Source of the DNA: a virus
Lineage: Duplodnaviria; Caudoviricetes
Strand: one strand, 5' to 3'
Virus record (IMG/VR): IMGVR_UViG_3300017914_002346
Length of the DNA stretch: 64,000 nt
The notes beneath the pieces were generated by a model. That model worked only from the letters and a program-made list of their open reading frames with translations, was not told where the DNA came from and searched no databases. This document shows positions 13,728-63,371 of the stretch, piece by piece. The position numbers and the translations under genes are program-made. Each line of letters opens with the position of its first letter. The first letter of the stretch is position 1.

Positions 13728-15722
13728 TTATCCTTCACACGCTCTACACTCGGCTCCTTCGAACGTAGCTTCATTACTATTATTATCAAAAAACTGCATA
13801 AGTTCGTCATAACCCCCGATATAATTACCATCTAGATAAATTTGTGGTACAGTTTTTACATCTCTGCCAGTTACTTCAGCAGCTGTTTTACCTATTTCCT
13901 TAAGGTTAACAAACTCGTGTTCAATACCTCTCATAGATAATTCTTCTTTAGCCATTTCGCAGAATGGGCAGTCGTCTTTCCCATAAATGACCGTACCCTT
14001 GTAGTCCTCGAGCGCGATCCGTTCGACTTTGTCAGCAACAGTTTCTGCACGCGATTTGGCTTCAGTACGTAAGTAGTAAAGACCTTTGAGGCCTCCTTCC
14101 CAGGCTGCCAAGTGTACGCTATTAACATAGGATCTCTCACAACCCGCAGGGAAAAATAAGTTAACGCTTTGTCCTTGACAGACGAATCTTTGCCTATCAG
14201 ATGCGTGACGTACGACCCACATTTGATCGAGCTCCTGCGCAGTCTTAAAAATATTCTTTTCTTCATTCGAAAGGAAGTCAAGGTGTTGGACAGAGCCTTT
14301 ATTTGTAATAATAGATGACCATGTCTTATCATCATTCTTTTCCTTCTTCGCTAAAACTTGTTCCAAGTATTTGTTCTTAACTAAGAACGAACCTGCTCTT
14401 GTTCTATGTGTATATGCATTTGCTTTTAACGGCTCAATAGAAGGGCTAGTAGAAAGAATGATACCGCTAGAAGCGTTGGGAGCGATTGCCAGAAGGTGCG
14501 CAAATCTATTGCCAGTTCCAATACCATCAGGATATTCTCCTCTTCTTGTTGCTAAGTCTTTTGATTGCTTTGCTGCTTTTGTTTTGATGTTGTCGAAGAT
14601 AATCGAGTTGTGTACAGCTGCGCTCTCGGACTCCCAGGCGATATTGTTTCGCTGTAAGTATGAGTGGAATCCCATTGCACCAAGTCCAATTGACCGTTCT
14701 CTTTCAGCACTATACCGCGCTCTGGATATAGCATCCGGCGCATTTTCGATGAAGAATTCCAAGACATTATCAAGCATCGTAACAAGATCTTGTACAATAT
14801 TGGTATCTTTCCACTCCTCAAACAACTCCAGATTAAGAGAGGACAAACAACAGACAGCAGTGCGATCCGGACCTGTAGGTAGGTGTATTTCATTGCAAAG
14901 ATTAGATCCATGAACTTTTAATCCCATATTTTTTAGATTGGAAGGTAACGCGTTGTTAGCAGTGTCAATAAAATTAAGATATGGTTCTCCGGTTCTAAAC
15001 CTAATTTCAATAATACGTTCCCAAAGTTTACGTGCATTTACTGTCTCCTTTACAGAATTATCTTTAGGGTCTTTTAGATGCCAAGGCTCATTGTTAAACA
15101 CACAGTGCATAAACTCATCAGAGATATTTACTGCGTTATGTAAGTTAAGAGCTTTTCTCTGTACATCTCCAGTAGGAATACGAATGTTAATAAACTCCAT
15201 AATATCAGGATGTGACACATCCATATAAGCTGCATAAGAACCTTTACGAGTTTTACCCTGTCTATATGCAATCATATCTGCATCTACTGTATGTAAGAAC
15301 GGAATAGGTCCGGGAGCAATATCTGATACAGTTCTTACATCTGACCAGTGGCCACCTACACCACCACCGTAGATAGATAACCATCTTAACTCTGATGAAT
15401 GACTAATAAGACCTTCTAAAGTATCTGGTACATAAGTTAAGAAACAAGAGATAGGAAGGCCTTTGTCTTTTTTCGTTCCATTAGGTGCGTTAGATAACAC
15501 TGGGGATGCAAACATAAAGTATTTCTTACTAACATAATCATATAGACGTTGCGCTAATTCATAATCAGTTTCACCTTTATAGGTAGCCCATGCAGTTGCT
15601 GCACGTGCGTATGCTTCTTGAGGTGAATCCTCATGATCTAACATATAAAAATCTTCTAACATATTGATTGCATAATCAGTTAGAATCTTATCGTTATCTT
15701 TGTTAATTTTTACTTTAGCCAT
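13728..15722 (-). CDS. nrdA: Class Ia ribonucleotide reductase alpha subunit with in-frame glutaredoxin domain
   Basis: ISCF, GSNLCNEI, APNASS, GLKGLYY; then CPFC...TVPQI...IGGYDEL, then terminal CRACEG. Confidence 0.97.
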   Translation of the reverse strand: MAKVKINKDNDKILTDYAINMLEDFYMLDHEDSPQEAYARAATAWATYKGETDYELAQRLYDYVSKKYFMFASPVLSNAPNGTKKDKGLPISCFLTYVPDTLEGLISHSSELRWLSIYGGGVGGHWSDVRTVSDIAPGPIPFLHTVDADMIAYRQGKTRKGSYAAYMDVSHPDIMEFINIRIPTGDVQRKALNLHNAVNISDEFMHCVFNNEPWHLKDPKDNSVKETVNARKLWERIIEIRFRTGEPYLNFIDTANNALPSNLKNMGLKVHGSNLCNEIHLPTGPDRTAVCCLSSLNLELFEEWKDTNIVQDLVTMLDNVLEFFIENAPDAISRARYSAERERSIGLGAMGFHSYLQRNNIAWESESAAVHNSIIFDNIKTKAAKQSKDLATRRGEYPDGIGTGNRFAHLLAIAPNASSGIILSTSPSIEPLKANAYTHRTRAGSFLVKNKYLEQVLAKKEKNDDKTWSSIITNKGSVQHLDFLSNEEKNIFKTAQELDQMWVVRHASDRQRFVCQGQSVNLFFPAGCERSYVNSVHLAAWEGGLKGLYYLRTEAKSRAETVADKVERIALEDYKGTVIYGKDDCPFCEMAKEELSMRGIEHEFVNLKEIGKTAAEVTGRDVKTVPQIYLDGNYIGGYDELMQFFDNNSNEATFEGAECRACEG

Positions 15723-16569
15723 TAACTTTCTTCCATGCGTTAAATTTTATTTTAGCTGCAAGTCCAGCGTAGGTATTATGTTCAACCAGATGTTGAACGT
15801 CAATACCTTTAGATATCATATCGTTTATGTCTTTTTCTTTAATGTAATTGGGCCAAATAACTGTCTTAAAACCTTTTTCAATATACTTCTCTACCTTACC
15901 GACTATTTGTTTGTTCCTAGGCTCGTTATCAAAGACTAAGACAGCGTTTGAGTTGTATTTATCATCTATACCATCTGATCCCGCCATGGCTATACAATTT
16001 TTTAGAAATAAACTATCAATAGGTCCTTCTACTACATAAAAAGTTTTATTAAGATCAACTTTCTGTTTACCAAATAGTTTCTCTTCTTCTTTAAACATTA
16101 TAGTAATGTATCTAGGTTCTGATCCGTCTAGTGATCTACCCTGTAAACCAAATAGATCTCCATCTTCGTTAAAGAAAGGTAGGATTAATCTTTCAGATCG
16201 TCCGACGTCAACCTGGGCATACTTAGCAACATCTCTAAAGTCCTCACAGTAAAAGAGCTCAGAATAAGCGCTACTAGGGATGTTTCTATTCCGTACATAA
16301 TGTACGCATTTATGGCTATCAGGAAGATCAGATAGAACCGTACAATGAGATAAGATATTGCTATAGTTGATATTTGATTGGATATTGCTCCTACTACTCC
16401 TATCGATAGCACTATTGTTGTTAACATTTTTTACCTTACTATAATTAAAGTGTCTTTGACAGTGATGACATAAGAACATCTCTCTATCTTCATGAGTATA
16501 GACGAAGGCATCCTTACCACAGTAAGGACAGTCACCATGCTTTACAAGATCACTTAAGTTTCTGAACAT
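15715..16569 (-). CDS. gp61: DNA primase (T4 gp61-like)
   Basis: CPYCG..CHHC Zn finger; VVEGPIDSLF; FDNEPRN; KDINDM. Confidence 0.93.
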   Translation of the reverse strand: MFRNLSDLVKHGDCPYCGKDAFVYTHEDREMFLCHHCQRHFNYSKVKNVNNNSAIDRSSRSNIQSNINYSNILSHCTVLSDLPDSHKCVHYVRNRNIPSSAYSELFYCEDFRDVAKYAQVDVGRSERLILPFFNEDGDLFGLQGRSLDGSEPRYITIMFKEEEKLFGKQKVDLNKTFYVVEGPIDSLFLKNCIAMAGSDGIDDKYNSNAVLVFDNEPRNKQIVGKVEKYIEKGFKTVIWPNYIKEKDINDMISKGIDVQHLVEHNTYAGLAAKIKFNAWKKVNG

Positions 16570-16582
16570 ACAGATATTATAT

Positions 16583-17137
16583 CTATCTGTCTAATATTTT
16601 TCTGATATCTTTGCGTTTCTTTTTACCAAGAACTGGATCAATGCCGGCTATTCCTGTAGCATTTACTTGTGCATTTGTACCTGCACCTGACATAGCGCCT
16701 CCGAATGTAGCACCGGATGTCATAGATTCCATCATTGCTTCTTCCCAAGCATCCATGAAACCTTCAGCAGTAGAAAGATCATGTTTAATCTTAGGAACAA
16801 TTTTATGTTCTTGTAATTTTTCCATTAGTACATCTGATGTTTCTTTATTTGCTTCATTCTCTACATGTTCTTTTAGTAAAGCTAACGCAGCAATATATGA
16901 TGCAAGTTGAGTAGAACCACCAGGTACTTTAGCAAGTAATCTTTTAAGATTGAATACCATTCTATCTAATAATGTAATTGTTTTCTTTTGATTAGCTGTT
17001 CTGTCACCAGGTTTAATTAGAATTTTACCTTTAGCGTCAATAACACCTGCTTTAAAAGCAGCTGTTTTGTTAAACGGAGTAACAAGCTTTTTTAAGATTC
17101 TAAAAATTATAACCGTATCAATTACATTAGCGGGCAT
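16583..17137 (-). CDS. Conserved T4-like hypothetical protein with capsid-N-arm-like C-terminus
   Basis: FRILKKLVTPF..T.AFK.GVID..G; aa137-170 match gp23 aa51-84. Confidence 0.8.
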   Translation of the reverse strand: MPANVIDTVIIFRILKKLVTPFNKTAAFKAGVIDAKGKILIKPGDRTANQKKTITLLDRMVFNLKRLLAKVPGGSTQLASYIAALALLKEHVENEANKETSDVLMEKLQEHKIVPKIKHDLSTAEGFMDAWEEAMMESMTSGATFGGAMSGAGTNAQVNATGIAGIDPVLGKKKRKDIRKILDR

Positions 17138-17501
17138 TTCTATCCATCTCTTTTAAACTCTTAGCAGTATACAGATCAAACTTTATTTCTGGCATCTCAT
17201 TAGGTATTAAAAATCCAAAATAGTTCAATACTGTTTTCATTACCTCTTTTTCTTTTTCAGAGATACCATACATTAATATTTTCTTCGCAGCTGGTAACTC
17301 AAAACTATTTGTAAAACATAATATATGATTGCATAACAATCTAATATTTTCCGATCTTTGAGCTGCAAACTTTTTAACTAATTTTTTTGCAAGCTTATGT
17401 CTTGATAAATCATCTAGAAACTCTTCTTTACTTAAACAAGACTCAGATCTATAATTTTTCGCAGCATAAACCTCTAGATTGCTATCGTTTAGGTCCATCA
17501 T
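17127..17501 (-). CDS. Conserved T4-like hypothetical protein
   Basis: YAAKNY...EEFLDDL...RLLCNHI...N.F motif. Confidence 0.75.
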   Translation of the reverse strand: MMDLNDSNLEVYAAKNYRSESCLSKEEFLDDLSRHKLAKKLVKKFAAQRSENIRLLCNHILCFTNSFELPAAKKILMYGISEKEKEVMKTVLNYFGFLIPNEMPEIKFDLYTAKSLKEMDRNAR

Positions 17502-17883
17502 CTTTTACAGTAATCTTCGGCTTCATATTAACTTTTTCAGTTTTACCTGATAACTTTATTTTCACAGCCTTAGGATCTGCTTCATCTTCTACATCCTTAC
17601 GACCTATAGCAACCTGTGAACCCGGCGCAGCAGTAGGATCTACTGGAGGGCCTGGAGGCGGAGGAGGGACCTCTTCTCCACTTGTATCGTAATGCGTTTC
17701 TGTTCCCGAACCATCAGCATTCTTTTTGACCTCCTTAGAGATTTTTTTTTCTTTCTTTTCCTCTTTAGAAGTTTCTGTAGAAGTTTTACCTCTGGAAATT
17801 TCAGCTCCATCATTAATCTTCTCATTTAAAAACTCTCTAAAGTTAGACAAAGAACCAAATTTTTTAACTAACTCTATATCCAT
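17482..17883 (-). CDS. Hypothetical protein (Lys/Glu/Pro-rich)
   Basis: Start reassigned to MDIELVKK; C-terminal LSGKTEKVNMKP. Confidence 0.65.
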   Translation of the reverse strand: MDIELVKKFGSLSNFREFLNEKINDGAEISRGKTSTETSKEEKKEKKISKEVKKNADGSGTETHYDTSGEEVPPPPPGPPVDPTAAPGSQVAIGRKDVEDEADPKAVKIKLSGKTEKVNMKPKITVKDDGPKR

Positions 17884-17884
17884 A

Positions 17885-18004
17885 TCAATCTCTTTTTGGT
17901 AACATACTAATAATTTTTTCTTGAATAGATTTAGCCCACCAAGGTTGAGGAAAATTCCATCCAATAAAAGCACCTACGATAATCCAAAGAATAATATCTA
18001 CCAT
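17885..18004 (-). CDS. 39-aa membrane protein (not in ORF track)
   Basis: MVDIILWIIVGAFIGWNFPQPWWAKSIQEKIISMLPKRD; AGGAG SD. Confidence 0.7.
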   Translation of the reverse strand: MVDIILWIIVGAFIGWNFPQPWWAKSIQEKIISMLPKRD

Positions 18005-18027: not shown

Positions 18028-20520
18028 TCAAGCAAAGAAGTCTTCTAGAGTGTTTTGCTTCTCAGGAGTCCAACCAATAGGAGAAAGAATGATATCCATA
18101 GGTTCAATAATTGCTTTCGAGAATTGTTTTTCGTAATCAATATAGCTAGTAAAACTAAACTCTTTAGGTACTGTATGATTGAACGATAATACATTAGTAC
18201 CTATGTTATTAGGTTCTCTAAGATAGATAAACTTACCTTTTTCACCATCTTTCATAGTTTCCCAGTCTTTTTCTAGATCATACTTCTTAAGCAATCTATT
18301 AAACTGTATAGCACCTCTAATATGAGGAGGAGTACCTTTCTGGAAACCATTCGCAATAGTCATCTTAGAAATATTATTCATAGTTCTAGGAAAAGCAATA
18401 TCTTCAAACTGCATATTAATAAACTTATCCTTAAAGTTAGCAATATATTCTTGTACTGTTTTCTCATCTTCTAATAGAGTAAGTCTAATCATAGTAAGTA
18501 GGGCTTCTCTGCAAGACTGAGGGGTAGAAGATCGAATAGCATCTAAACCTTGAATCTTAAGTTTAGGTTTATCTGGTGGCATTCTCACACCTTCCATATC
18601 CCAAACACACATAGCATATCTCTTCTTAGCAGTCCAGAAGGCAGAAGAAGCAATAGCTTCTCTTTCCATGACCATTTTTTGAGAGTATGCATTAGTATAG
18701 TTCTTAGTATCTTCCCAACCTTCTTCTAATACCTTTTGTACTTGCTCTTTAGCAATCTTATCTAAGATATCTACTATTTCTTCTTTAGACTTATTAGAGA
18801 AAAATTTATTCACTAGAGGTTGACAGTTAAGATAGTTAGAGTCAGTATCGATAGCAATAATATAATCTATATCTTCGGTCTGTAAGACTTTATTCATCCA
18901 TTTGTTAATCTCTCGTTCAGCTACTTGAATAACAAACTGACCTGATAAAGTAATAGACTTACCGATACGCTGATCATACCATCTAAAATACTTGTTAACG
19001 AATGCGCCATAACCTGAGTTAAGTAGAATCTTTAGCACATATTGACGTAGATTTTCTAATGAATCATCTTTACCTTCACGTTGCTTTTGCAACATTTTCT
19101 GTTTAATACCTCTACGCTCATCATAAAGCCTACGCATTAGACGTGGTATTACCCCTTCTATCTCATTGGAGAACACGTATCCTGAACCACATACTGAATG
19201 TCCTACAGGTGCTTTGAAAGACTCTTTAGCAAGGAATTTTTGCACTCTTTCCATATCACCTTCCATAGGCCATACTTGCATTTCAGGTCTAAAAGTTTCT
19301 GGAGAGATATTAAATTGCATAATAAGGTGCGGATACAGAGAGTTTAAATCAAAGGACATACACCATCCATGTTTACCTACTTGAGGTTCTTTAACATGAC
19401 CACCTGGAATATTACCTGATGACTCAGCAGTAGTAATATGGAAATGAGGTATAACTCTATCCTTTTGTAGCTCTTTGTTAATTAAGCTATCCCAAGTTCT
19501 AACAGTAGAGTTAACCTCACCATAGTTAATACAAGCCATATACGCAATCATAATCTGCGCATCAATAAGACCTAACTTCTCGTCGAGTCGTTTAACTAGG
19601 TTAACGTCCTGAATATTGTAGTCAATAAACTTCTGAAAGTTTTCTACATAAAGCATATGCAAACCTGACACTTCAGAATAGTCAAGTTTACGTTCACCTA
19701 GTTCTACAGATGCGATAAAATCTAGTCTATATGACTCTTGAATCTTTGTCTTACGATAACGTTCGATATAGTCAATCTGATCTACACCGTCAATATTAAC
19801 AGCTATCTCCTCTCCTCTAGCAGTCTGAATAGTTCTTAAACTTGCCCTATTCCAAGGAGATAATCTATGACCACCAATACCTAAGTTCTCTAATCTATTA
19901 TAGAGATAAGGAAAGTCAAACTTCTCAATATTCCAACCAGTAACAATATTAGGTGTAAACTGATTCCAATACTTAAGAAACCTTGACAGTAGCTCAGTCT
20001 CTGTTGCACACTCTACATAAACTACTCTTGAACGAATATCTTCTGGCAGTTCTGAGTTTTCTTCTAACCACTTACCATGACCAAAAGTAACAAACTTATC
20101 TACTTTAGAATCGTGAATACATATAGCAGTTACAGGGTATGCAGCATCTTTAGCTTCAGGAAAGCCTTCATTAGAAAAAACCTCGATATCGATATTGAAT
20201 ACTCTAAGGTCTTTCTTATTCCAATTGTCCACCGCATTACCAAAGTTCTCTAACGAATACTGAGATTCAAATCTAGGAAAACCATAGATTTTTAGATTAG
20301 AGTCTTTATGCTCCTGAGCAAATTCGAAAGCACTATTCATGTTATCGAATTCAATAGGTTTAAGGTTAGCACCATAAAGTGACTTATACCCATAATCTTT
20401 CGTATGTTCTACATACAGAGTAGGTTCGTAACGTACTTTGTCACGAACCTCTTCTCCGTTACGAACACCTCTAATTAAGAGTTTATCACCACGTCGAACA
20501 ATATTAGTATAGTAATCCAT
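18028..20520 (-). CDS. gp43: Family B DNA polymerase (T4 gp43-like)
   Basis: DIE exonuclease, SFDLNSLYP, KILLNSGYG, IDTDS, KKRYA. Confidence 0.98.
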   Translation of the reverse strand: MDYYTNIVRRGDKLLIRGVRNGEEVRDKVRYEPTLYVEHTKDYGYKSLYGANLKPIEFDNMNSAFEFAQEHKDSNLKIYGFPRFESQYSLENFGNAVDNWNKKDLRVFNIDIEVFSNEGFPEAKDAAYPVTAICIHDSKVDKFVTFGHGKWLEENSELPEDIRSRVVYVECATETELLSRFLKYWNQFTPNIVTGWNIEKFDFPYLYNRLENLGIGGHRLSPWNRASLRTIQTARGEEIAVNIDGVDQIDYIERYRKTKIQESYRLDFIASVELGERKLDYSEVSGLHMLYVENFQKFIDYNIQDVNLVKRLDEKLGLIDAQIMIAYMACINYGEVNSTVRTWDSLINKELQKDRVIPHFHITTAESSGNIPGGHVKEPQVGKHGWCMSFDLNSLYPHLIMQFNISPETFRPEMQVWPMEGDMERVQKFLAKESFKAPVGHSVCGSGYVFSNEIEGVIPRLMRRLYDERRGIKQKMLQKQREGKDDSLENLRQYVLKILLNSGYGAFVNKYFRWYDQRIGKSITLSGQFVIQVAEREINKWMNKVLQTEDIDYIIAIDTDSNYLNCQPLVNKFFSNKSKEEIVDILDKIAKEQVQKVLEEGWEDTKNYTNAYSQKMVMEREAIASSAFWTAKKRYAMCVWDMEGVRMPPDKPKLKIQGLDAIRSSTPQSCREALLTMIRLTLLEDEKTVQEYIANFKDKFINMQFEDIAFPRTMNNISKMTIANGFQKGTPPHIRGAIQFNRLLKKYDLEKDWETMKDGEKGKFIYLREPNNIGTNVLSFNHTVPKEFSFTSYIDYEKQFSKAIIEPMDIILSPIGWTPEKQNTLEDFFA

Positions 20521-27236: not shown

Positions 27237-28178
27237 TTAGAAAGATACTTTTAGACCAAAGTTATATGACTGACCATCTTCCTCTGTAACAGCAGAAGAT
27301 TGTTTCTCTTCATAGTCTGTCATAGTTGCGTGTACAACTAAACCAGGAGCAACAGTTTTAGCAACTGTTACAGCAGTTTCGTTAAATTTATACGCGGAAT
27401 CTTTATCATCTTTAGCTTCTGCCATATGAGTTGAGATATCTAAACCATTCATGCTAGTTTTAATACCAATACTGTTACCAGTATATGCATACGTCTCAGC
27501 GTCATCTTCTTTAGTATTTTGTGCTAATGTAATAGCTGCCATACCTGCATTAATTGTAAAGCCATATGACTTAATATCAATACCTGTATCAGCAGTGCCA
27601 TTATCATCTACCATTTCCATTGCATACTGTGCAGTAACTGGGCCAGCTGTATAACTTAAACCTAAACCTGTTGTATCTGCTTTTGATGTAGTACCTGCAT
27701 CAACAAAACCTACACCAAAATTTAAGCCTGCAATTGAGTTATGATAACCAATGCCGTTTTCTTCATTAGATGCACCGATTAGCTCACCGCCAGTATATTC
27801 AATTGTACCAGTACCATGGTAATCATCACCGGCTACTCTACCGTCAATTGAATATGTATCAGCTGCACTGTTACCGCCCATTACAATTTTACCAAAATCA
27901 CCAGCGATAAAAGCACTTACGCCATCAGCGTCATGTGTACCATCTTCCATATCTAAAAGAGTAGCACCCATAGTCATACCATTATCTAAAGCAGTTTTTG
28001 CCTTAATTGTAATTGTATGGTCAACATCCATTTTTGTGTTGTTAGCCCCACCTGTATCAACTTCGGCATCATCCCACATCTGATAATCAAAAGTACTTGA
28101 ACCAGAAATAGTAATATCCGAAGCCATTGCAGGTGATGCTAATACTGCCAACACTGCAGCCGTCATCATCTTTTTCAT
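27237..28178 (-). CDS. Outer-membrane porin (alphaproteobacterial type)
   Basis: Start reassigned to MKKMMTAAVLAVLASPAMA (signal peptide, AAGGAG SD); LDNGMT.G, GDFGKIVMG, TVAPGL; C-terminal Phe. Confidence 0.85.
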   Translation of the reverse strand: MKKMMTAAVLAVLASPAMASDITISGSSTFDYQMWDDAEVDTGGANNTKMDVDHTITIKAKTALDNGMTMGATLLDMEDGTHDADGVSAFIAGDFGKIVMGGNSAADTYSIDGRVAGDDYHGTGTIEYTGGELIGASNEENGIGYHNSIAGLNFGVGFVDAGTTSKADTTGLGLSYTAGPVTAQYAMEMVDDNGTADTGIDIKSYGFTINAGMAAITLAQNTKEDDAETYAYTGNSIGIKTSMNGLDISTHMAEAKDDKDSAYKFNETAVTVAKTVAPGLVVHATMTDYEEKQSSAVTEEDGQSYNFGLKVSF

Positions 28179-28199
28179 TTTGAGCTCCTTTCGTACGAC

Positions 28200-28331
28200 A
28201 AAAAAGATGGAGAGCTTACCATGGCTCTCCACGTGTCTATTAAGCGACAAACCTTAAATGTAGCAGAGCCGGTGTATACTTTCCGGGTGCAATCCTCCAA
28301 GTTTTAGCATAGCTAGGCACAGAGGGTTAGC
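28200..28331 (-). ncRNA. Candidate structured RNA / attenuator upstream of porin
   Basis: GC-richer intergenic stretch with several stems, ending in TGGAGAGC-loop-GCTCTCCA plus a T-run. Confidence 0.45.
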
Positions 28332-54862: not shown

Positions 54863-56353
54863 TTACACGTTGTCGATACGGAACTTACGATAGTAAACGT
54901 TAGTATTATGAGCTGCCAAGCCTTGTGACTGTACTGCTGCAGAACCCTGTGAGAATGGATTTGAAACCATACCGTAACGAGTCTTGAAGCCAATCTTTGG
55001 CTGGAATGTCTCTTGTGCAACTGCACGTACCATCTGTAGTGGTACGTATGGGCAGTAGAACATACCTGCGTCCATGTTGTTTGCACCCTTATAACCAACA
55101 ACAGCATAATCGCCATTAGTTGCATATGGGTCAACATACACTTTCATGCGTCCGTTCAATGTACCTGCAAATACACCTGATGTCACATCAACGTTTAAGT
55201 TGTCTGACAAGCCTGATGAATAGTCTAAAAGACCAGCCATTGTCAAGCTAGATGCTACGTTTGCAGAACAAAGTACGAAATTACCTTTACCGCGGCGTGT
55301 TTCGAAAGCAATTTTGTTTGCTTCTTTCTCAAGCTGCAACATAAGGCCTTTCTGACGCTCAACTGACCAACGGCCTTGACCATCTGCAATCAAGTCAAAG
55401 ATACCATCGTTTGTTAAACCGTCTGCACCATACTTAGCTTGGCTAATCATAGTACGTACTACTTCACGGTTAATTTCAGCAAGAATTTCTGTTGACAAAA
55501 TGTTTGACAATTCTGCTTCTGCATCCAAACCATGAACTGCTTTAAGGTCTTGAACCAATTCCATGGTGTATTCACTCTTGAGCGCACGTGTCTTTGCTTC
55601 AACAGCTGTACGTTCAATTGTGAATGACATTTCACGGAAGTTATCCCCTTCACCTTCTCTGGTTGTCATACCAAATGGTGTTGTGCCTGCTGAAGACATA
55701 CCTGATGGTACATAACCTGTGTTAAGTGCTGGGTCAGCTGTTACTGTGTCAACGAATGGATCGTTAACAGGTGTAACTGAGTTGTCTGTGTAAGCTTCTG
55801 ATTCAGCTGCTGTTGAACCGTCTGACTTTGAACGTGATGGTGAGAATGGATTCCCTGAAGTATCTTCATTGGTACCTGCAGCATGTGTTCCTGGCTGACC
55901 AGTGTTAAATGCTGTACCAGAGAAGTTCGGGAATACTTCATCATAGAATGCTTCTAATCCGAGATCACCTGCACCTGGTTCGTTGTTGTTATTGTAACGT
56001 GCACGTAATGCGAAGATCAAACCTGTCGGAGCTGACATTGGCTGAACACCACATAAATCGAATGCCATCATCTGTGGCATTGCACGGCGGACCAATGAGA
56101 TAATGATTGGATCATAACCTGCACGGCCTGTAGCATTGATGGTTGCGTTTGTACCTGCGCCTGAGAATGCGCCACCGAATGCTGCACCAGAAACTGATGC
56201 TTCATCGATAATACCTGCCTCTTCCTTCAATGCCTTTTCTGTGTTTTCGAGGACCTGAGCAACAACCGCTTTACGATCACGATCCTGAATTGGATCTAGA
56301 TCTTCATGGCTGATTACTGGTGCCCATTTTTCCATAAGGACATCGGTTGACAT
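54863..56353 (-). CDS. gp23: Major capsid protein (gp23)
   Basis: DP..ISLVRR, GVQPM..PTGLIFA, ELVQDLKAVHGLDAE.EL, FYCPYVPL, FQPKIGFKTRYG. Confidence 0.99.
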   Translation of the reverse strand: MSTDVLMEKWAPVISHEDLDPIQDRDRKAVVAQVLENTEKALKEEAGIIDEASVSGAAFGGAFSGAGTNATINATGRAGYDPIIISLVRRAMPQMMAFDLCGVQPMSAPTGLIFALRARYNNNNEPGAGDLGLEAFYDEVFPNFSGTAFNTGQPGTHAAGTNEDTSGNPFSPSRSKSDGSTAAESEAYTDNSVTPVNDPFVDTVTADPALNTGYVPSGMSSAGTTPFGMTTREGEGDNFREMSFTIERTAVEAKTRALKSEYTMELVQDLKAVHGLDAEAELSNILSTEILAEINREVVRTMISQAKYGADGLTNDGIFDLIADGQGRWSVERQKGLMLQLEKEANKIAFETRRGKGNFVLCSANVASSLTMAGLLDYSSGLSDNLNVDVTSGVFAGTLNGRMKVYVDPYATNGDYAVVGYKGANNMDAGMFYCPYVPLQMVRAVAQETFQPKIGFKTRYGMVSNPFSQGSAAVQSQGLAAHNTNVYYRKFRIDNV

Positions 56354-56422: not shown

Positions 56423-58417
56423 TTAATTATTCACAGTCTTTGAAAGGAACTTCGCATACTGCGATACAGTACTGTCATCTTCTTCGATAACTGTACCACC
56501 GAATACTTCCTCACTCAATGAGCTAAGAAGTGGTTGCTCAGATGATTCGTTGAAATAGCCCTCTTTAAGCTGCTCTACTTTATATCTGAACTCTTCGATG
56601 TCATCTGCTTCAACATTTTCAGACAAGTTTTCTAAGCGGATCTTTTGTGTCTGAGTTAAGTCGTTGCTGACTTCATCTACGATTTCTTTTCTTTTGATTT
56701 CCAAAAGTTCTCTCTTAGCTGACTCAAGCTCACCTGCTTGCTCATCTAACTGCTCTTTATATGATTCAACTGCTTCAGTTAACTCATCAACAACAGATAC
56801 TTCTTCTTCTGGAATATCAATAAAGTTAGATTCAAATACTGTCTTCATTTCGCGAATAAAGTTTTCAGCAATTTCAGTTCTTAATGAGTATTTGATCTCT
56901 AACTGATTTTCTTCTAACCATTCATTAACTACATAGTCAACATACTGGTCAACTTTTTCGTTAATCTTTTTAACTTCTTCTTCTAATTCATCAGCGTATT
57001 TAGCTTCAATTTCTTCAGCTAACTTATTAGCCTTTTCATTGACTGCTGTTTCAAAGATAACAGAAGCTTTTTCTTTAAAGTCTTCATCAAGATCTTCCAT
57101 TAACTCATCCGCATCTTCCTTAACAGGGCCTTTTGGATTAGCTTTAGTTGGAGTATCAATAGGATCTTTAGCTTGATCATGAGCACCTTCACCAGGATTA
57201 CCACCTTTAGAAGTAGGCTCATTTTTACCTTTCTCTTCTTTAGGACGTTTGTCTTCATTTTCAGCAGAAGATGGTGCAGCTTCTAACTTTTCACCAGTTG
57301 CTTCTTCTACTTCTTCTTCTGACTCTTCTTTAGCCATAGCTTTCTTAATAGCTTTGTCTTTATTGTCCATATACTCTTTATCATCTGGCTCATCTACACC
57401 ATCACCATCCATGTCACCTTTATCTTTTGCTTCAGTGACTTCTTGATAATGAGCTTCGATTTCTGCTTGCTCTTCTTCAGTCAAGTTAGAATAGAAATCA
57501 TGGAACTCTTCTTCTGTAAGACCTTCGATCTTATCCCAGTCCCATTCCATTTCTTCTTCTACAGATTCTTTAGCTTCTTCTTCATCATCGTCGTCATCGT
57601 CATCATCTTTTTCGTGATCATCTTTAGAAGCCTCTTCTACTGACTCATCAGTTTCTTCTTTATCATCGTCTTCATCATCGTCATCAGAATCATCTTCTTC
57701 TTTCATGTTCTTCATTGACTCTTTTTCATCGTCTGGAATATGATCATCATTAGCATTCTTTTTTACAGTTGTGTCTTGTGCTTCTTCGATCTCGTCTTCT
57801 TCCACTACAACAGAATCATAACGCTCTTTAAACTCAGCTAACTCTTCTTCTGTTAACGAATCAACTAACTCCTGGAAATCATCTTCAGAAAGGTTATCAA
57901 TCTTATCCCAATCCCATTCCATTGTTTCTGCATCTTCGTCCATAGCTTGATTATGAGGACCTTTGTTAGCTTCAACTTCAGCTGAAGCGTCAGAAGGTAA
58001 TGCATTCTTACCATCTTTCTTAGGACCTACATCTTTATCACCACCACCATCGATAGCAGCACCTTTTTCTGAACCTAAAACTTCTTTAGAATTATCTGAT
58101 GCGCTAGAAGCAATCTTACCTTTGTTCATATCACCGACGTCTTTATCACCGCCTGCGTCAATAGCAGCACCTTTTTCAGAACCAATAACCTCAGATGAAT
58201 TATCACCTTCTTGATCTGACTTAGGCTTAGCTGTATCAGTAAGTTTATTAGCTGCAAGAGACTTATCAGTCTTGTCCTGCGCTTCGTCTACCTGATCTTC
58301 TTCACTCATTTTGTTTTGAGGGTTTCTAACTTTTTTAGGTGCAGTCATATCCGCTTCTAAAAGCTCCTCAATAACATCAATTAAACCGTTATTCTTTTCC
58401 ATTGTATTAAACTCCAA
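56423..58417 (-). CDS. gp22: Prohead core scaffold protein (gp22), greatly extended acidic N-terminus with internal repeats
   Basis: C-terminal EDFKEKASVIFETAV...DQYVDYVV.EWL.EN...IDIPEE; position between gp21 and gp23. Confidence 0.92.
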   Translation of the reverse strand: MEFNTMEKNNGLIDVIEELLEADMTAPKKVRNPQNKMSEEDQVDEAQDKTDKSLAANKLTDTAKPKSDQEGDNSSEVIGSEKGAAIDAGGDKDVGDMNKGKIASSASDNSKEVLGSEKGAAIDGGGDKDVGPKKDGKNALPSDASAEVEANKGPHNQAMDEDAETMEWDWDKIDNLSEDDFQELVDSLTEEELAEFKERYDSVVVEEDEIEEAQDTTVKKNANDDHIPDDEKESMKNMKEEDDSDDDDEDDDKEETDESVEEASKDDHEKDDDDDDDDEEEAKESVEEEMEWDWDKIEGLTEEEFHDFYSNLTEEEQAEIEAHYQEVTEAKDKGDMDGDGVDEPDDKEYMDNKDKAIKKAMAKEESEEEVEEATGEKLEAAPSSAENEDKRPKEEKGKNEPTSKGGNPGEGAHDQAKDPIDTPTKANPKGPVKEDADELMEDLDEDFKEKASVIFETAVNEKANKLAEEIEAKYADELEEEVKKINEKVDQYVDYVVNEWLEENQLEIKYSLRTEIAENFIREMKTVFESNFIDIPEEEVSVVDELTEAVESYKEQLDEQAGELESAKRELLEIKRKEIVDEVSNDLTQTQKIRLENLSENVEADDIEEFRYKVEQLKEGYFNESSEQPLLSSLSEEVFGGTVIEEDDSTVSQYAKFLSKTVNN

Positions 58418-58431
58418 TTAATTTATTTATA

Positions 58432-59097
58432 TTAAAGCGTCTTTAAGAAGCTCTCAAATACTTCTAACTTAACTTCATTAAGTTCTTTTAATTTAGCTCT
58501 CTTTAATTTCTCTCTCTGAAATTCTAAATCTACTTGTTTCCAAATTCCAGATTCGTAAATCCATTCAGCTTGTTCCATTACACCTTCAACAAAAGATGAT
58601 TGTGCAGATGGATCAAACACAACATCAGCGGCAGTAGTAAGTACAAAATCATTACCTACTAAATTATAACCTTCTCTTTGAGGAATAAGACTACCTAAAC
58701 CTCTAGAAGATACACCAATCTTTACACCATCAGATAAAAGATTCTCTACTATCTTACCCATTGGTGTTGATAAAACCTTAGCTTTACCCATATAGTAAAC
58801 AGCGTCGTCAGCCCTTTCTTTAGTCAACTTAGTTGTCATAATAGCTGCGCGCTCAGGATTTACAATAGGTTCAGCTGGATGGTTCAATTCCCCCAAAGCT
58901 CTTTTTTGTGAAATATAATCTTCGTTATACTTTTCAACTGCAGCATCCATAACTTCTTCTGTATAGATTCTGCCATTTTTATTTTTCTTTTCAGCTTGAA
59001 GAAAAGGACCATTAATATACATTCTTTTCTCTGAACCTTTACCTTCAGAGATGACATCTAGATCATTAAAAGTGATATCTTCTTTAATAAGTTTCAT
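58432..59097 (-). CDS. gp21: Prohead protease (gp21)
   Basis: NKNGRIY, ALGELNHP, GVSSRGLGS, DVVFDPSA. Confidence 0.97.
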   Translation of the reverse strand: MKLIKEDITFNDLDVISEGKGSEKRMYINGPFLQAEKKNKNGRIYTEEVMDAAVEKYNEDYISQKRALGELNHPAEPIVNPERAAIMTTKLTKERADDAVYYMGKAKVLSTPMGKIVENLLSDGVKIGVSSRGLGSLIPQREGYNLVGNDFVLTTAADVVFDPSAQSSFVEGVMEQAEWIYESGIWKQVDLEFQREKLKRAKLKELNEVKLEVFESFLKTL

Positions 59098-59431: not shown

Positions 59432-60148
59432 TTAATTTAATGTATTAGCAATTGATCTAGATCTACCTTTAACTCTACGTTTGGTAATCTTTGTCTTAAT
59501 TGCTGCTTTCTTCTTTGCACCTTTACCCATTGCTTTTTTAGCTCTCTTGAGCTTAATACCAACGCGGCGCATCTTTGCTTTTTGTGTTCCAGTTTGAGGT
59601 AAACATCTATTGCCTGCTAATCTCATTCCTGGACCGCAGATCTTTTTCTTTTTAATCTCACCCTTAGCTCTTTTAAAGATAACTTTTGCTCTTTGAGCTT
59701 TACCTTTATACTTCTTACCACCTGGAGGATTTTTTTCTGCTTCTTCTAATTCTTCTTCTGTATCTTCAATGATTTCCATTTCATAGTCTTCAGCAAACAA
59801 CATCTCTTTAAGTGCTAACATACTGTTTACTGAAGGATCTACTTCATTAAGATCAAACTCAAATACTAAGTCCATTACTGAACCGTCTTGATTAGGAGCA
59901 AAGTCAAACACTTCTTGAACTTCATAATGGTTTTCAATAAGTTCGATATCTAAATCCAACTCACCATCGAACTCAACAGTTTCTTCAAACTGTTCAATTT
60001 CAACTTCTTGTCTCATCTCATCTAATTCACTCTCAGTAAATAAGAAATGAGTGTTATGAGAAACTCCGTTGAGCATCTGTTTCTTTAACTCTTCTCTAAA
60101 AGTCTGAGTCTGATATTTTTTCCATTCAAGAAGATTCATTTTCATCAC
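59432..60148 (-). CDS. Prohead core protein (gp68-like)
   Basis: Acidic N-terminal half, very basic C-terminal half; position upstream of gp21. Confidence 0.6.
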   Translation of the reverse strand: MMKMNLLEWKKYQTQTFREELKKQMLNGVSHNTHFLFTESELDEMRQEVEIEQFEETVEFDGELDLDIELIENHYEVQEVFDFAPNQDGSVMDLVFEFDLNEVDPSVNSMLALKEMLFAEDYEMEIIEDTEEELEEAEKNPPGGKKYKGKAQRAKVIFKRAKGEIKKKKICGPGMRLAGNRCLPQTGTQKAKMRRVGIKLKRAKKAMGKGAKKKAAIKTKITKRRVKGRSRSIANTLN

Positions 60149-60307: not shown

Positions 60308-61792
60308 TTAACCCCAGAGAATAGAGTCCATCTCAAGAGTTGAGTTCTTCAACTCCTCTTCAAGCTCTTGTTTCTCTGCATTCGCTTCATCCCAAAGTCC
60401 TTGACCATCGAGTTGTACACCACCAGGAAGTTCAGTATTTTGATATTTCTTTAAATTAGAACCCCACTGTTGCTTTGCTAACACCGTAGCATATCTTTTT
60501 AACCATGTGTTTTTATAAACCTCACCTGTTAGTTCTGGATCTGCTTGTTCATATACTTCACATAAAAGATAAAAATCTCCTCTACTTTTACCTGTCTTAA
60601 TTCTATTCCAATCTACGTCTAAATATAATCTACTTCTATATTGATTAAATCTTATTGCAGGAGCTGTGTTTAATAAAAAGTCAATATGTTCTACATTTAA
60701 CTTTTGTGTGTAGTAGTTTGATAAACCAGTACCTACAGCATTACCATAGAACATATCAAAGTTATTAAGGAAGTACTGATATTCAAAATTGTACATACCT
60801 GCATGAGTGAAAGAATCTACTTTAGCAACCTTAGTAACAGATACAATACTATCTGGAACTTTAATACCAATCTGTCCTGTAGATGTAACTGTAATGTTTT
60901 CATCTTCTAATACTTTTAATTCTTCTTTAAAGTATTTGCTAAAGCCATTATGAGCTGTTCGTTTACCAAATCTTCTAGGTCTTGTAGATGTAGGGCTAAA
61001 ACGTTGACTTCTTAGAACATCTCTTTGTGTATATCTAGTAGCTCTTTCTATAATTACCAATTTAAATCTTTGATCTGAATCTGTATCTAAATCACTATCA
61101 AACAATCTAAAAGTAGTACCATCGGAATCTTGTACGTATGCACCAACTTCGTCACTATCATATCTATTAGAGTAATCTAAATCTGAGTCAAGTAGTCTAT
61201 AAGTAACACCGTCAGAGTCTAAAATATATGCTCCGCTATTATCAGAATCATATACTTGGTAATAATCTAAATCAGAATCAATAGCTCTAAATTCAGAACC
61301 ATCAGAATCTAAAATATGAGAACCGTATTGTTCAGAGTCATAAAATTTAGCTGTTTCAGAAATGTCTAAATCACTATCAAATACTCTTATATTACCATCT
61401 GAATCTCTTACAAAGGCACCATTAGTATCTGAATCATAAAAGATATTAGTTGACTCTGAATCAGTCTTAATAAAGATTCTATTTCCTCTAGTATTATCAA
61501 CTTTAACCATAACTCTATCACCAATGCGATAGTCGTTTAGCTTATCTGAGTCAAATTTTTCTGCTGTAAGATCTTGGTGAATTCTATTATTACGGTTAAG
61601 TAAATTTGAATCTACTTTAATTGTTCTCCAAGATCTAGTTACACCATCATAGTGATAGTTGTAAAAGAATTGCACGGCTTCGTCAATACAATCTTCCAAT
61701 TGTACATCAGCGATTTCTACGTTAATGACTGGCGCGCCTAGTCTACGTAAAACCCAATCTGCTAACTCTTGTTTAGTCGCTGGTAATGGCAT
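60308..61792 (-). CDS. gp13: Neck protein (gp13) with large DSD-repeat insertion
   Basis: LRRLGAPVINVE...Q.EDCIDEA.Q....YHYDG; WLKRYAT...K.QWGSNLKKY....LPGG..LDG. Confidence 0.93.
   Translation of the reverse strand: MPLPATKQELADWVLRRLGAPVINVEIADVQLEDCIDEAVQFFYNYHYDGVTRSWRTIKVDSNLLNRNNRIHQDLTAEKFDSDKLNDYRIGDRVMVKVDNTRGNRIFIKTDSESTNIFYDSDTNGAFVRDSDGNIRVFDSDLDISETAKFYDSEQYGSHILDSDGSEFRAIDSDLDYYQVYDSDNSGAYILDSDGVTYRLLDSDLDYSNRYDSDEVGAYVQDSDGTTFRLFDSDLDTDSDQRFKLVIIERATRYTQRDVLRSQRFSPTSTRPRRFGKRTAHNGFSKYFKEELKVLEDENITVTSTGQIGIKVPDSIVSVTKVAKVDSFTHAGMYNFEYQYFLNNFDMFYGNAVGTGLSNYYTQKLNVEHIDFLLNTAPAIRFNQYRSRLYLDVDWNRIKTGKSRGDFYLLCEVYEQADPELTGEVYKNTWLKRYATVLAKQQWGSNLKKYQNTELPGGVQLDGQGLWDEANAEKQELEEELKNSTLEMDSILWG
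61073..61441 (-). repeat. Four ~30-aa in-frame repeats in gp13
   Basis: Consensus YDS[D/E]xxG[A/S]xxxDSDGxxxRxxDSDLD, aa118-240. Confidence 0.95.
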
Positions 61793-63371
61793 CGTGCTCT
61801 ACTATTTCCGTTTCAGTATTTATTGTAAGAACATCTTTCTCTCCTGATAGAGTAACATCTCTAACTTGTACACTTTCAAAACCAAAAGGTTCTGGTGGCA
61901 TATCAGGATCTTTAATTTGTTCTTTTTCCATCTCGTTCATAATCTCTGTATCAATACGTGCAATATCTTCTTCTGTATGACCAAGAATAACTTTGCGTAC
62001 ATATTCGATAGAGAAATATTTACCTACATATTCATTAGCATCTCTAAGTACTGCTAACTGATCGTTAAGTAATTCTACCTGCTTAAGTTTATCAAAGTGC
62101 ATATCTTTGAGATAGTCATAACTGATATACTGTCTCATTTCTTCGAACTCAGCTTGAGTACAAACACCTTTAAGTACTAACTGAACTCTTAACACTTCGT
62201 TAAACAATTCAGCAAACTGTTTTCTAATACGTTTAATAAACTTACTAAATTTTATTTCATCTCTTGAGATGTCTGATGCTCTTCCGAGTTGAAAGTTGTT
62301 GTCTTGGTTGATTCTTGAGATTGGGACATTGAGCGATTGATATAATTTCTCCTTGAAGTAATTGACATCGTCAAGATCTCCAAGATTTTGTCCTCCAGGG
62401 AGTGTACTAATCTCCGTACCTCTTGACCCTTCTCTTCTAGGGAGCCAGAAGTCCTCCAACAACGACATAAATTTTCTCGAATCACGAATCTCTCCTGTAT
62501 TTGGATTGTAGTCAATTTTATTTCTATAACGATTCATCATATCTCTAAGATAAGTCTCAGCTTTAATCTTAGGTAATGAACCCACATCAACATAAAAAAT
62601 TCTTCTTTCAGGTGCTCTAGCAATACGATAAACAATAAGAGCATCTTCCATAGAACGAAGATTGTTAAAAGGTTTAATTGCTTTGTCTAAGTAACCAACA
62701 ATACTACCTTTATTTCTATCTACCAATCCTGATGGACAAAAGATAACAGAGTCTTTGGATAACTTTACACCATTATTACCACCATCAGGAGAATATTCAA
62801 AGTACTCATCTACTTTAACTAATACAGGAACACCTGTTCTAGGGTCTTTATCATATTTAGGTTTAACATGTCTTTTAATCTTAAGAGCGTCGATAGGTCT
62901 TAATTCTTTAATACCATTCTTAAGATTTTCTTGATCTACAATAACTTGGTAGTGTAGTCTACTATCTACATACCATTGTCTAAAGATGTCATATGAACGT
63001 CTTTGAAACTTAAGAAGATGAAGAGTTGTCTTAAACTCTTCTCTAATTATTTCTTTAATTCTATCATCAATGTTAAGAAGATCTAATCTAATAGATACTG
63101 AAGGTCTTTCATGTTCTGTAGTGAAAGCTTCGTTTACAATATCATCAATAGCAGCATCAGCTTCTGGATAGAAAGAAATGTCTCTATACTGAGCAATTAA
63201 TGCATGTTCGCTTCTTGCTTTACTATATTGTTCGTAAGTATAACCAATCCTACCACCAACAGGTAAGTCAGTACCATCATCCATTGGTTTAGGAACGGGT
63301 GATGGTACTGGTTGATCATTCTTGTTTTGAACTAATTCGAACCCGAATAGTTCTTCTTTCTGTAAAGCCAT
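61773..63371 (-). CDS. gp20: Portal protein (gp20)
   Basis: IYRIARAPERRIFYVDVG-type motif, EDFWLPRREG.RGTEISTLPGGQNLG. Confidence 0.98.
   Translation of the reverse strand: MALQKEELFGFELVQNKNDQPVPSPVPKPMDDGTDLPVGGRIGYTYEQYSKARSEHALIAQYRDISFYPEADAAIDDIVNEAFTTEHERPSVSIRLDLLNIDDRIKEIIREEFKTTLHLLKFQRRSYDIFRQWYVDSRLHYQVIVDQENLKNGIKELRPIDALKIKRHVKPKYDKDPRTGVPVLVKVDEYFEYSPDGGNNGVKLSKDSVIFCPSGLVDRNKGSIVGYLDKAIKPFNNLRSMEDALIVYRIARAPERRIFYVDVGSLPKIKAETYLRDMMNRYRNKIDYNPNTGEIRDSRKFMSLLEDFWLPRREGSRGTEISTLPGGQNLGDLDDVNYFKEKLYQSLNVPISRINQDNNFQLGRASDISRDEIKFSKFIKRIRKQFAELFNEVLRVQLVLKGVCTQAEFEEMRQYISYDYLKDMHFDKLKQVELLNDQLAVLRDANEYVGKYFSIEYVRKVILGHTEEDIARIDTEIMNEMEKEQIKDPDMPPEPFGFESVQVRDVTLSGEKDVLTINTETEIVEHDAITSD

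Follow-up and report, generated by a model that had tools for sequence, protein, structure and literature searches.

A gene 61.1 family protein of T4-like phages contains a copy of the N-terminus of gp23, the major capsid protein

Introduction

In bacteriophage T4, residues 66-91 of the mature major capsid protein (gp23*) form the N-fist, a 25-residue element that touches four subunits, two in its own capsomer and two in the adjacent one, and helps to form the Soc site (PMC9958956, PMC7136217, PMC9546572). Before expansion, the N-terminal region of gp23 lacks order and is found within the prohead, where it probably lies on the scaffolding core (PMC9546572). After expansion the N-fist region moves to the outer surface, and mutations affecting head length (A66D, A94V and G97S) lie within or beside the N-fist (PMC9958956, PMC7136217, PMC9546572). 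In the five subunits that face the portal, the N-fist is disordered because the neighbouring capsomer is missing (PMC9958956, PMC7136217). Here we report on a gene that carries a copy of the gp23 N-terminus outside the head genes, at positions 16583..17137 (minus strand, 184 amino acids in the list of open reading frames) of a 64,000-nucleotide stretch, hereafter the window, of the virus record IMGVR_UViG_3300017914_002346 (Duplodnaviria; Caudoviricetes).

The core proteins IPI, IPII, IPIII, Alt, gp67 and gp68 of T4 bear a capsid-targeting sequence (CTS), an N-terminal stretch of 10-19 residues. Previous work has shown that the first ten residues of IPIII are enough to package foreign proteins, and that CTS residues 4 and 7 govern targeting and residues 8 and 10 processing (PMC9026906). 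The vertex protein gp24, which is also a product of gene 23 duplication in T4-like phages, is processed by the protease gp21. T4 head assembly is among the most thoroughly studied assembly pathways, yet gp61.1, the T4 relative of the window protein, has no assigned function. In the literature that we searched, gp61.1 was linked neither to gp23 nor to a CTS, although an older remark elsewhere is possible; as far as titles indicate, publications naming gp61.1 do not deal with head assembly.

Results

The C-terminal half of the window protein copies the start of its own gp23

In a sequence-only reading of the window, the product of 16583..17137 had been taken for a mimic of the capsid N-arm because of a short ungapped match to gp23. 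This match was reproduced. When the whole open reading frame (ORF) was compared by BLASTP with the gp23 of the window (54863..56353, minus strand, 496 amino acids; Pfam Gp23, E=6.5e-135), which itself aligned to T4 gp23 chains in the PDB with E=1e-18, ORF residues 100-182 were placed on gp23 residues 2-96 (E=2e-12). The ungapped core of this alignment, with 23 of 34 residues identical, pairs ORF residues 137-170 (16628..16729, minus strand) with gp23 residues 51-84 (56102-56203, minus strand), the predicted first mature residues of the capsid protein. The motif DVLMEK, also pointed out before, lies within the same alignment, at ORF residues 102-107 (16817-16834) and gp23 residues 4-9 (56327-56344). 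Both genes are on the same strand and ~38-39 kb apart, close to the ~39 kb given earlier.

A six-frame search of the 64-kb window with gp23 residues 1-100 returned, besides gp23 itself, only this ORF (E=1e-11), and the alignment score of its C-terminal segment reached z=20.8 against 500 shuffles. The next-best match (E=0.026) fell in a low-complexity, porin-like ORF of 337 amino acids (27237-28250, minus strand), Gly/Thr/Ala-rich and with an N-terminal signal-peptide-like stretch, whose match to the gp23 N-terminus is weak and a matter of chance.

The copy starts with a shortened counterpart of the gp23 propeptide (residues 100-136, 16730..16840, minus strand; gapped BLASTP to gp23 residues 2-50), which opens with DVLMEK and ends in a predicted helix. 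At its end, a predicted prohead-protease site, M-M-E|S (residues 135-138, 16724..16735, minus strand), is aligned with I-D-E|A in gp23. A hydrophobic-x-Glu motif was present at this place in all 87 close family members and in all 61 close gp23 relatives, and the proposed resemblance of the Glu to a gp21 site holds at the level of the motif. The N-fist-like segment of residues 137-170 comes next and is followed directly by KKKRKDIRK within a polybasic tail (residues 171-184, 16586..16627, minus strand, read from the sequence). The basic tail that the sequence-only reading had seen after the match is a regular feature: the last 22 residues of the 87 relatives carry a mean net charge of +5.9. The copy stops, and the K/R-rich tail begins, where gp23 runs into its N-arm and core.

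It is near certain that the C-terminal half copies the N-terminus of the phage's own gp23 at the protein level, and that this copy is old. It comprises a shortened propeptide, the maturation-cleavage motif and the first ~34 residues of the mature protein. By position and by alignment to T4 gp23, the copied mature residues would be the positional equivalent of the T4 N-fist; the earlier idea of a capsid mimic stands as a real, conserved copy of the mature gp23 start, with the N-fist in place of the N-arm.

No gp23 body was detected in the window protein, which had no Pfam Gp23 match at E<=0.1 and a model of helices and disorder only. Lacking an HK97-fold body, it cannot be a shell subunit. In the AlphaFold2 model, built with 70 homologues, a small helical domain at residues ~10-70 was confident (pLDDT 84-94) and more helices extended up to residue 140, including one at 124-140 just before the motif; the C-terminal part, with the N-fist-like segment, was modelled as disordered. 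The helical N-terminal domain (residues 1-97, 16847..17137, minus strand) is common to all family members except the short forms of T-even phages. For its fold, Foldseek gave no PDB match and the best VIA Z was 4.4; neither an annotated Atlas cluster nor a PDB sequence match was found, and the BFVD matches were uncharacterised phage homologues.

The window gene belongs to the gene 61.1 family

The window ORF matched PHROG 18642 (E=4.3e-33) and PHROG 2086 (E=4.6e-19), both annotated as of unknown function, and no Pfam family in the profile search. By tblastn, its N-terminal ~100 residues were found in 376 phage records, mostly Straboviridae of enterobacteria, Acinetobacter, Vibrio and Aeromonas, with further members in Sinorhizobium, Stenotrophomonas and Pseudomonas phages and in marine phages such as HTVC008M. 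In the records of CC31 and S16 the gene carries the label 61.1 ('similar to gp61.1' in S16). The protein collection held 283 homologues, of which ~87 are marine relatives, 50-98% identical to the window protein and of equal length and architecture.

In every annotated record that has both a mimic-type member and an annotated primase, the primase lies directly downstream, with one small ORF in between in phiM19. This arrangement was seen in T4, Cronus, K566, S13, phiAS5, Astolliot, PSTRCR_127, S16 and CC31. Having the N-terminal domain shared by the family outside the T-even short forms, the place upstream of the primase and the C-terminal module, the window ORF belongs, with near certainty, to the gene 61.1 family of T4-like phages, T4 included.

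In order to compare the module among phages, the family protein and the cognate gp23 were extracted from 16 of them. The same layout recurred, namely a hydrophobic-x-Glu motif, a segment like the first mature gp23 residues and a K/R-rich tail, and the module was present in T4 gp61.1, Cronus, S16, CC31, PSTRCR_127, phiAS5, S13, K566 and phiM19. It was also carried by all of ~36 further Straboviridae genomes of IMG/VR (z ~9-21 against shuffles). The K/R-rich tail is at the equal place in T4, Cronus, KVP40-like, Aeromonas and phiM12-like members, and in T4, Cronus and others the motif aligns with the known T4 gp23 site after Glu65. Likeness to the gp23 propeptide is confined to the clade of the window and was at chance level in HTVC008M-type members.

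The HTVC008M-type sub-branch carries, in the place of the module, an unrelated ~70-residue domain without Pfam match, and its gp23 has a short mature N-terminus. This sub-branch includes HTVC008M, Melnitz, C48C1 and many phage contigs binned in metagenome-assembled genomes (loci L003:3001-3606, L010:1489-2100, L009:1477-2070, L087, L092, L154, L161, L164, L168 and L171 of our set). In Pseudomonas phage Astolliot (L016), the family member is 125 amino acids long and has no module, and no mimic was found genome-wide although its gp23 has a T4-type N-fist; the module is therefore dispensable in at least one lineage. Beyond the three clades, no significant mimicry was found in StenoDLP6 (z=1.8) or BUCT-ZZ01 (z<0), and a single IMG/VR locus, L090, was marginal (z=3.0). 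The end of the Stenotrophomonas phage DLP_6 protein (L013:1498-2022) resembles gp23 just after the N-arm (LVRR motif region), behind a basic tail, its N-fist-like part being the one without significance (z=1.8). Only two longer fused forms of the family were found, both without Pfam domains.

In two records the family member is annotated as 'major capsid protein', namely in Erwinia phage Cronus (AWD90464.1, L002:2980-3447) and Morganella phage Rgz1 (H34). Since these proteins have no Gp23 domain or capsid-fold body, the label is wrong, and the N-fist-like segment is presumably its source.

T4 gp61.1 is the module alone, behind an internal-protein-type leader

The membership of T4 in this widespread family had been overlooked in the sequence-only reading, as had the N-fist identity of the copied part. 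T4 gp61.1, encoded by L001:1967-2131, has 54 amino acids and consists of the module alone. It aligns to gp23 residues 56-93 and so spans the known maturation site after Glu65. When the complete T4 genome was searched with gp23 residues 50-100, only gp23 itself and gene 61.1 (E=4.8e-6) were obtained, and no counterpart of the N-terminal domain was found in this genome. As T4 keeps the module without the N-terminal domain, the module is a conserved functional unit.

T4 gp61.1 starts with MKTFKEFIKE, which differs at three positions from the 10-residue leader MKTYQEFIAE of IPII and IPIII, and the first 22 nucleotides are common to 61.1 and ipI (ipI start at 73855-73878 of the T4 record). A degenerate leader pattern matched only ipI, ipII, ipIII and 61.1 in the T4 genome and nothing in the control. 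At the CTS positions 4, 7, 8 and 10, gp61.1 has F, F, I and E; F7, I8 and E10 are as in IPIII, and F4 is as in IPI (Y in IPIII). Other T-even short forms retain similar leaders. The end of the gp23 propeptide also aligns with the T4 leader, so that the whole 54-amino-acid protein reads as gp23 56-93 plus tail.

RNA of 61.1 is early, and T4 ipI, ipII and ipIII are classed as 'early-RNA, late-protein' (PMC9697503). Early transcription is therefore no argument against action in the prohead. The leader fits the release by the prohead protease that had been proposed for the window protein, the cleavage itself being a prediction from the motif. We tentatively suggest, at not far short of an even chance, that the protein is directed into the prohead and cleaved there by the prohead protease, which would free an N-fist-like basic peptide.

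Upstream of 61.1, T4 gene 61.2 (L001:2133-2759) encodes AdfA, an anti-DarT factor (Pfam, E=7.5e-135), and stands where other phages have the N-terminal domain or small ORFs.

Early expression beside an anti-defence gene would also suit a decoy, that is, a copy of the capsid N-terminus made early that blocks or saturates a host sensor of the major capsid protein or of its cleavage product. Several defence systems are known that respond to capsid proteins. The synteny of 61.1 is, however, fixed in phages that infect enterobacteria, Vibrio, Aeromonas, rhizobia and marine hosts, which is unusual for host-specific counter-defence genes; a decoy gives no role to the conserved protease motif and the basic tail, and the Gol region of T4 (gp23 93-122) lies beyond the copied part. 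We consider a decoy very unlikely.

The module resembles the gp23 type found in its own clade

The window mimic reached a score of 123 with its own gp23, compared to 33-45 with every other one. For Straboviridae mimics the scores were 60-110 against Straboviridae gp23 and 20-35 against marine types, and the phiM19 mimic 46 against its own gp23 and ~28 against others. For nine clade representatives, the sum of the cognate diagonal was 601, compared to a permutation mean of 362 (sd 55; p ~1e-5), and cross-clade scores were near the shuffle background. The module thus corresponds to the gp23 type that its own clade carries, and not to that of other clades, in the marine clade of the window, in ~45 Straboviridae and in phiM12-like phages. 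One ancient duplication followed by simple divergence would give a similarity independent of the pairing, and hence either co-evolution or repeated re-copying is required. Recent gene conversion or re-copying was rejected: nucleotide identity of the aligned mimic and gp23 segments was 0.49-0.65 in nine phages, and in the window 14 of the 23 identical residues share their codon, compared to 10.4 expected from codon usage, with synonymous sites near randomised.

The claim that the protein must track its own gp23 was upheld, across T4-like phages, between deep clades and not within Straboviridae, where cognate pairing was no better than shuffled among 26 non-redundant pairs (identities, p=0.10; derived matches, p=0.18); power is low there because gp23 varies little. 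Two true mimic/gp23 pairs were available for the clade of the window. In the one besides the window itself (P0036/P0167, on one 201,239-bp contig), 24 identities were counted with the cognate partner and 24 with the non-cognate one, and covariation was limited to a single column (Thr to Asp in both). A search of IMG/VR, GTDB genomes and JGI metagenomes for more gp23 partners of close relatives yielded none, the contigs being short or the relatives of the non-mimic type.

Conservation within the clade of the window was analyzed in 37 distinct mimic variants and 51 distinct gp23 variants. The invariant positions of both coincide (Glu, SGA, F, GG, SG, two Asn, TG, AG and D), and the per-position entropies of the mimic and the gp23 segment are correlated (rho=0.65, p=4.5e-5). 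Fixed differences between them are F to M/L, R to M/L and Y to I/V. The mimic also varies within this clade, for example at a Thr/Ser/Asp position and between the two conserved Asn, and identical polymorphisms occur in gp23. The coinciding invariants and correlated entropies are the signature of a long shared structural constraint on both segments.

These data bear on two other explanations. Partial duplications occur in phage genomes, and the module might be what is left, without function, of a single recombination event between gene 23 and the 61.1 locus. It is, however, preserved in hundreds of sequences that span very deep divergence, with synonymous sites randomised and residues conserved, and is retained as a free-standing ORF in T-even phages. 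The conservation data effectively refute a relic, to which we give next to no probability.

The second is the use that the sequence-only reading had proposed for the copy: the freed peptide would fill empty sites, here taken as those of the N-fist, near the portal or the vertex pentamers. The basic tail would then contact DNA or acidic neighbours. The mimic keeps exactly the invariant positions of the N-fist, and the N-fist of T4 touches four subunits of two capsomers and is disordered in the five portal-facing subunits (PMC9958956, PMC7136217). On the other hand, the terms 'extra density' and 'unidentified' are absent from the text of the in situ study of the T4 portal vertex (PMC7136217), and expansion leaves the N-fist on the outer surface, whereas a peptide targeted to the core sets out from the interior. 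Filling of vacant sites is a sub-case of a prohead-released peptide that takes one further step, and we regard it as improbable.

The gene is fixed in the replication cluster

In the window, the gene stands in the order DNA polymerase (18028..20520), DUF7207 gene, window ORF, primase and ribonucleotide reductase, ~38 kb from the head module. The gp61-type DNA primase (15715..16569, minus strand; PHROG 47, E=3.6e-54) starts 13 nucleotides downstream of the window ORF, whose start is overlapped by the stop of the DUF7207 gene (17127..17501, minus strand; Pfam PF23837, E=2.8e-25). Outside Straboviridae the DUF7207 gene is a kept upstream neighbour, as in phiM19, metagenomic relatives, and marine and phiM12-like phages.

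The invariant place directly upstream of, and nearly overlapping, the primase, together with the conserved DUF7207 neighbour, raises the question of a link to replication, in which the N-terminal domain would work with primase or helicase and the capsid-like tail would link heads or head-protein levels to DNA in replication or in concatemers. The basic tail might attach to DNA. T4 and its relatives have nevertheless lost the N-terminal domain and kept the capsid-like module beside the primase, and Pfam, Foldseek and VIA gave no fold or family tie to replication proteins. We see little probability in such a link.

The large subunit of ribonucleotide reductase (13728-15722, minus strand) has a C-terminal glutaredoxin-like extension with CPFC, and in relatives Pfam Glutaredoxin is found on the same product. 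The next ORF upstream of DUF7207 (17482-17973, minus strand; 163 amino acids) is of low complexity, with a PPPPPGPP run, and without family.

The head module of the window

The T4-like head module is on the minus strand and comprises the portal (61773..63371), the prohead maturation protease, the scaffold and gp23. The gp21-type protease (58432..59097; PHROG 207, E=3.6e-65) is the presumed processing enzyme. The gp22-type scaffolding protein (56423..58417; PHROG 237, E=1.9e-54) is a possible docking partner, in the prohead, of both the gp23 N-terminus and the mimic. It is unusually long (664 amino acids), with the scaffold PHROG matching only residues 314-661; the N-terminal ~300 residues are hyper-acidic and of low complexity, with two pairs of internal repeats.

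Between a head-tail adaptor-like gene and the protease gene, a 238-amino-acid ORF (59432-60148, minus strand) has an acidic N-terminal half, L-E-E|A near residues 134-137 and a very basic C-terminal end of ~100 residues. Its single PHROG match was weak and of unknown function. From these features, its product is a candidate protease-processed internal or core protein of the window phage.

Discussion

The C-terminal module of the 61.1 family looks like an unrecognised head-assembly component. Starting from its homology to gp23, its conservation and clade specificity, the conserved motif and the rejection of recent gene conversion, we infer targeting, cleavage, and a location and role of the peptide, as follows. 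The gp23-like leader and site would make the protein act as an inward-facing gp23 N-terminus in the assembling prohead, where it would dock on the core. The gp21-type protease would cut after Glu137, as in gp23, and the ~47-residue basic peptide thus freed would remain with the shell, with the packaged DNA or with both. In T-even phages, which have lost the N-terminal domain, an equivalent peptide would be brought by the 10-residue internal-protein-type leader. The freed peptide may dock at the N-fist site of the shell, hold DNA by its tail, or compete for the core with the N-termini of gp23.

Several observations weigh against this mechanism. Proteomic detection of T4 gp61.1 was not found in the proteome and head papers examined (PMC9697503, PMC5694885), its protein-level class being NA in the T4 time-course proteome (PMC9697503) and its name absent from the main text of the T4 head mass-spectrometry paper (PMC5694885). 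The candidate targeting and cleavage signal of the window protein is internal (residues ~124-137), whereas that of known CTS proteins is N-terminal. The module has been lost in some lineages: many marine relatives carry an unrelated domain in its place, and Astolliot lacks a mimic altogether. Finally, the gene is fixed in the replication cluster and coupled to the primase, and no late promoter TATAAATA was found near it in the window or in T4.

The early RNA of T4 61.1 and the lack of a late promoter near the gene would also fit a cytoplasmic pseudo-substrate or competitor, an early protein that occupies prematurely active prohead protease or the contacts of free gp23 and so averts premature cleavage or polyheads until proper proheads are present. 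A free substrate would be disordered, as the mimic was modelled, and conservation extends over the cleavage motif and the entire P' side, with invariant positions as in gp23. A pseudo-substrate, however, leaves unexplained the polybasic tail that always replaces the gp23 continuation, as well as the ipI-type targeting leader of the T-even short forms, and the docking site of the N-fist exists only in the expanded lattice (PMC9958956). We consider this explanation unlikely.

Compared to the internal proteins with a CTS, the 61.1 products are alike in the hydrophobic-x-Glu motif and in a basic mature product, which is predicted for 61.1. The processing motif (L/I-x-E followed by a small residue) has its counterpart, as a motif only, in M-M-E|S of the window protein. 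The likeness is closest in T4, where gp61.1 shares with the internal proteins early RNA and a near-identical 10-residue leader, with 22 nucleotides in common with ipI. An N-terminal targeting sequence of 10-19 residues was recognised in T4 gp61.1 and other T-even short forms and not in the window protein, whose signal lies behind a 100-residue domain and whose packaging is a prediction. We therefore liken the window protein to a CTS-bearing internal protein without formally calling it one. The 61.1 genes also lie outside the IP loci, and their cargo copies an element of the capsid shell, as no known internal protein does.

With gp23 itself (in T4, propeptide 1-65 and N-fist 66-91), the window protein shares a homologous propeptide start, the cleavage site, the N-fist and its invariant positions, but it has no HK97-fold body and several positions differ in a fixed way. 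From gp24, a full-length HK97-fold paralogue without N-fist, the 61.1 proteins differ in copying only the N-terminal ~85 residues of gp23. What appears to be new here is a candidate head protein, predicted to be processed by the prohead protease, that has a copy of a shell element as its unusual cargo.

It is possible, though clearly below an even chance in our judgement, that T4-like phages make a free N-fist copy with a DNA-binding tail that is delivered to the prohead, released by the protease and matched to its lineage because it docks at the N-fist site or at a prohead partner of it. The module is present in T4, and this proposal is directly testable there.

For the annotation of T4-like phages, our results correct the recurring designation of these genes as major capsid protein. 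As a stand-alone copy of the element that locks capsomers, the module offers a handle on the binding partner of the gp23 N-terminus inside the prohead; on the control of head length and expansion, given the mutations A66D, A94V and G97S in or next to the copied region; and on the addressing of proteins to the head outside T-even phages, where no CTS is known. If T4-like phages do make a free N-fist as a head component, effects on head size determination, on expansion or on DNA anchoring would be expected.

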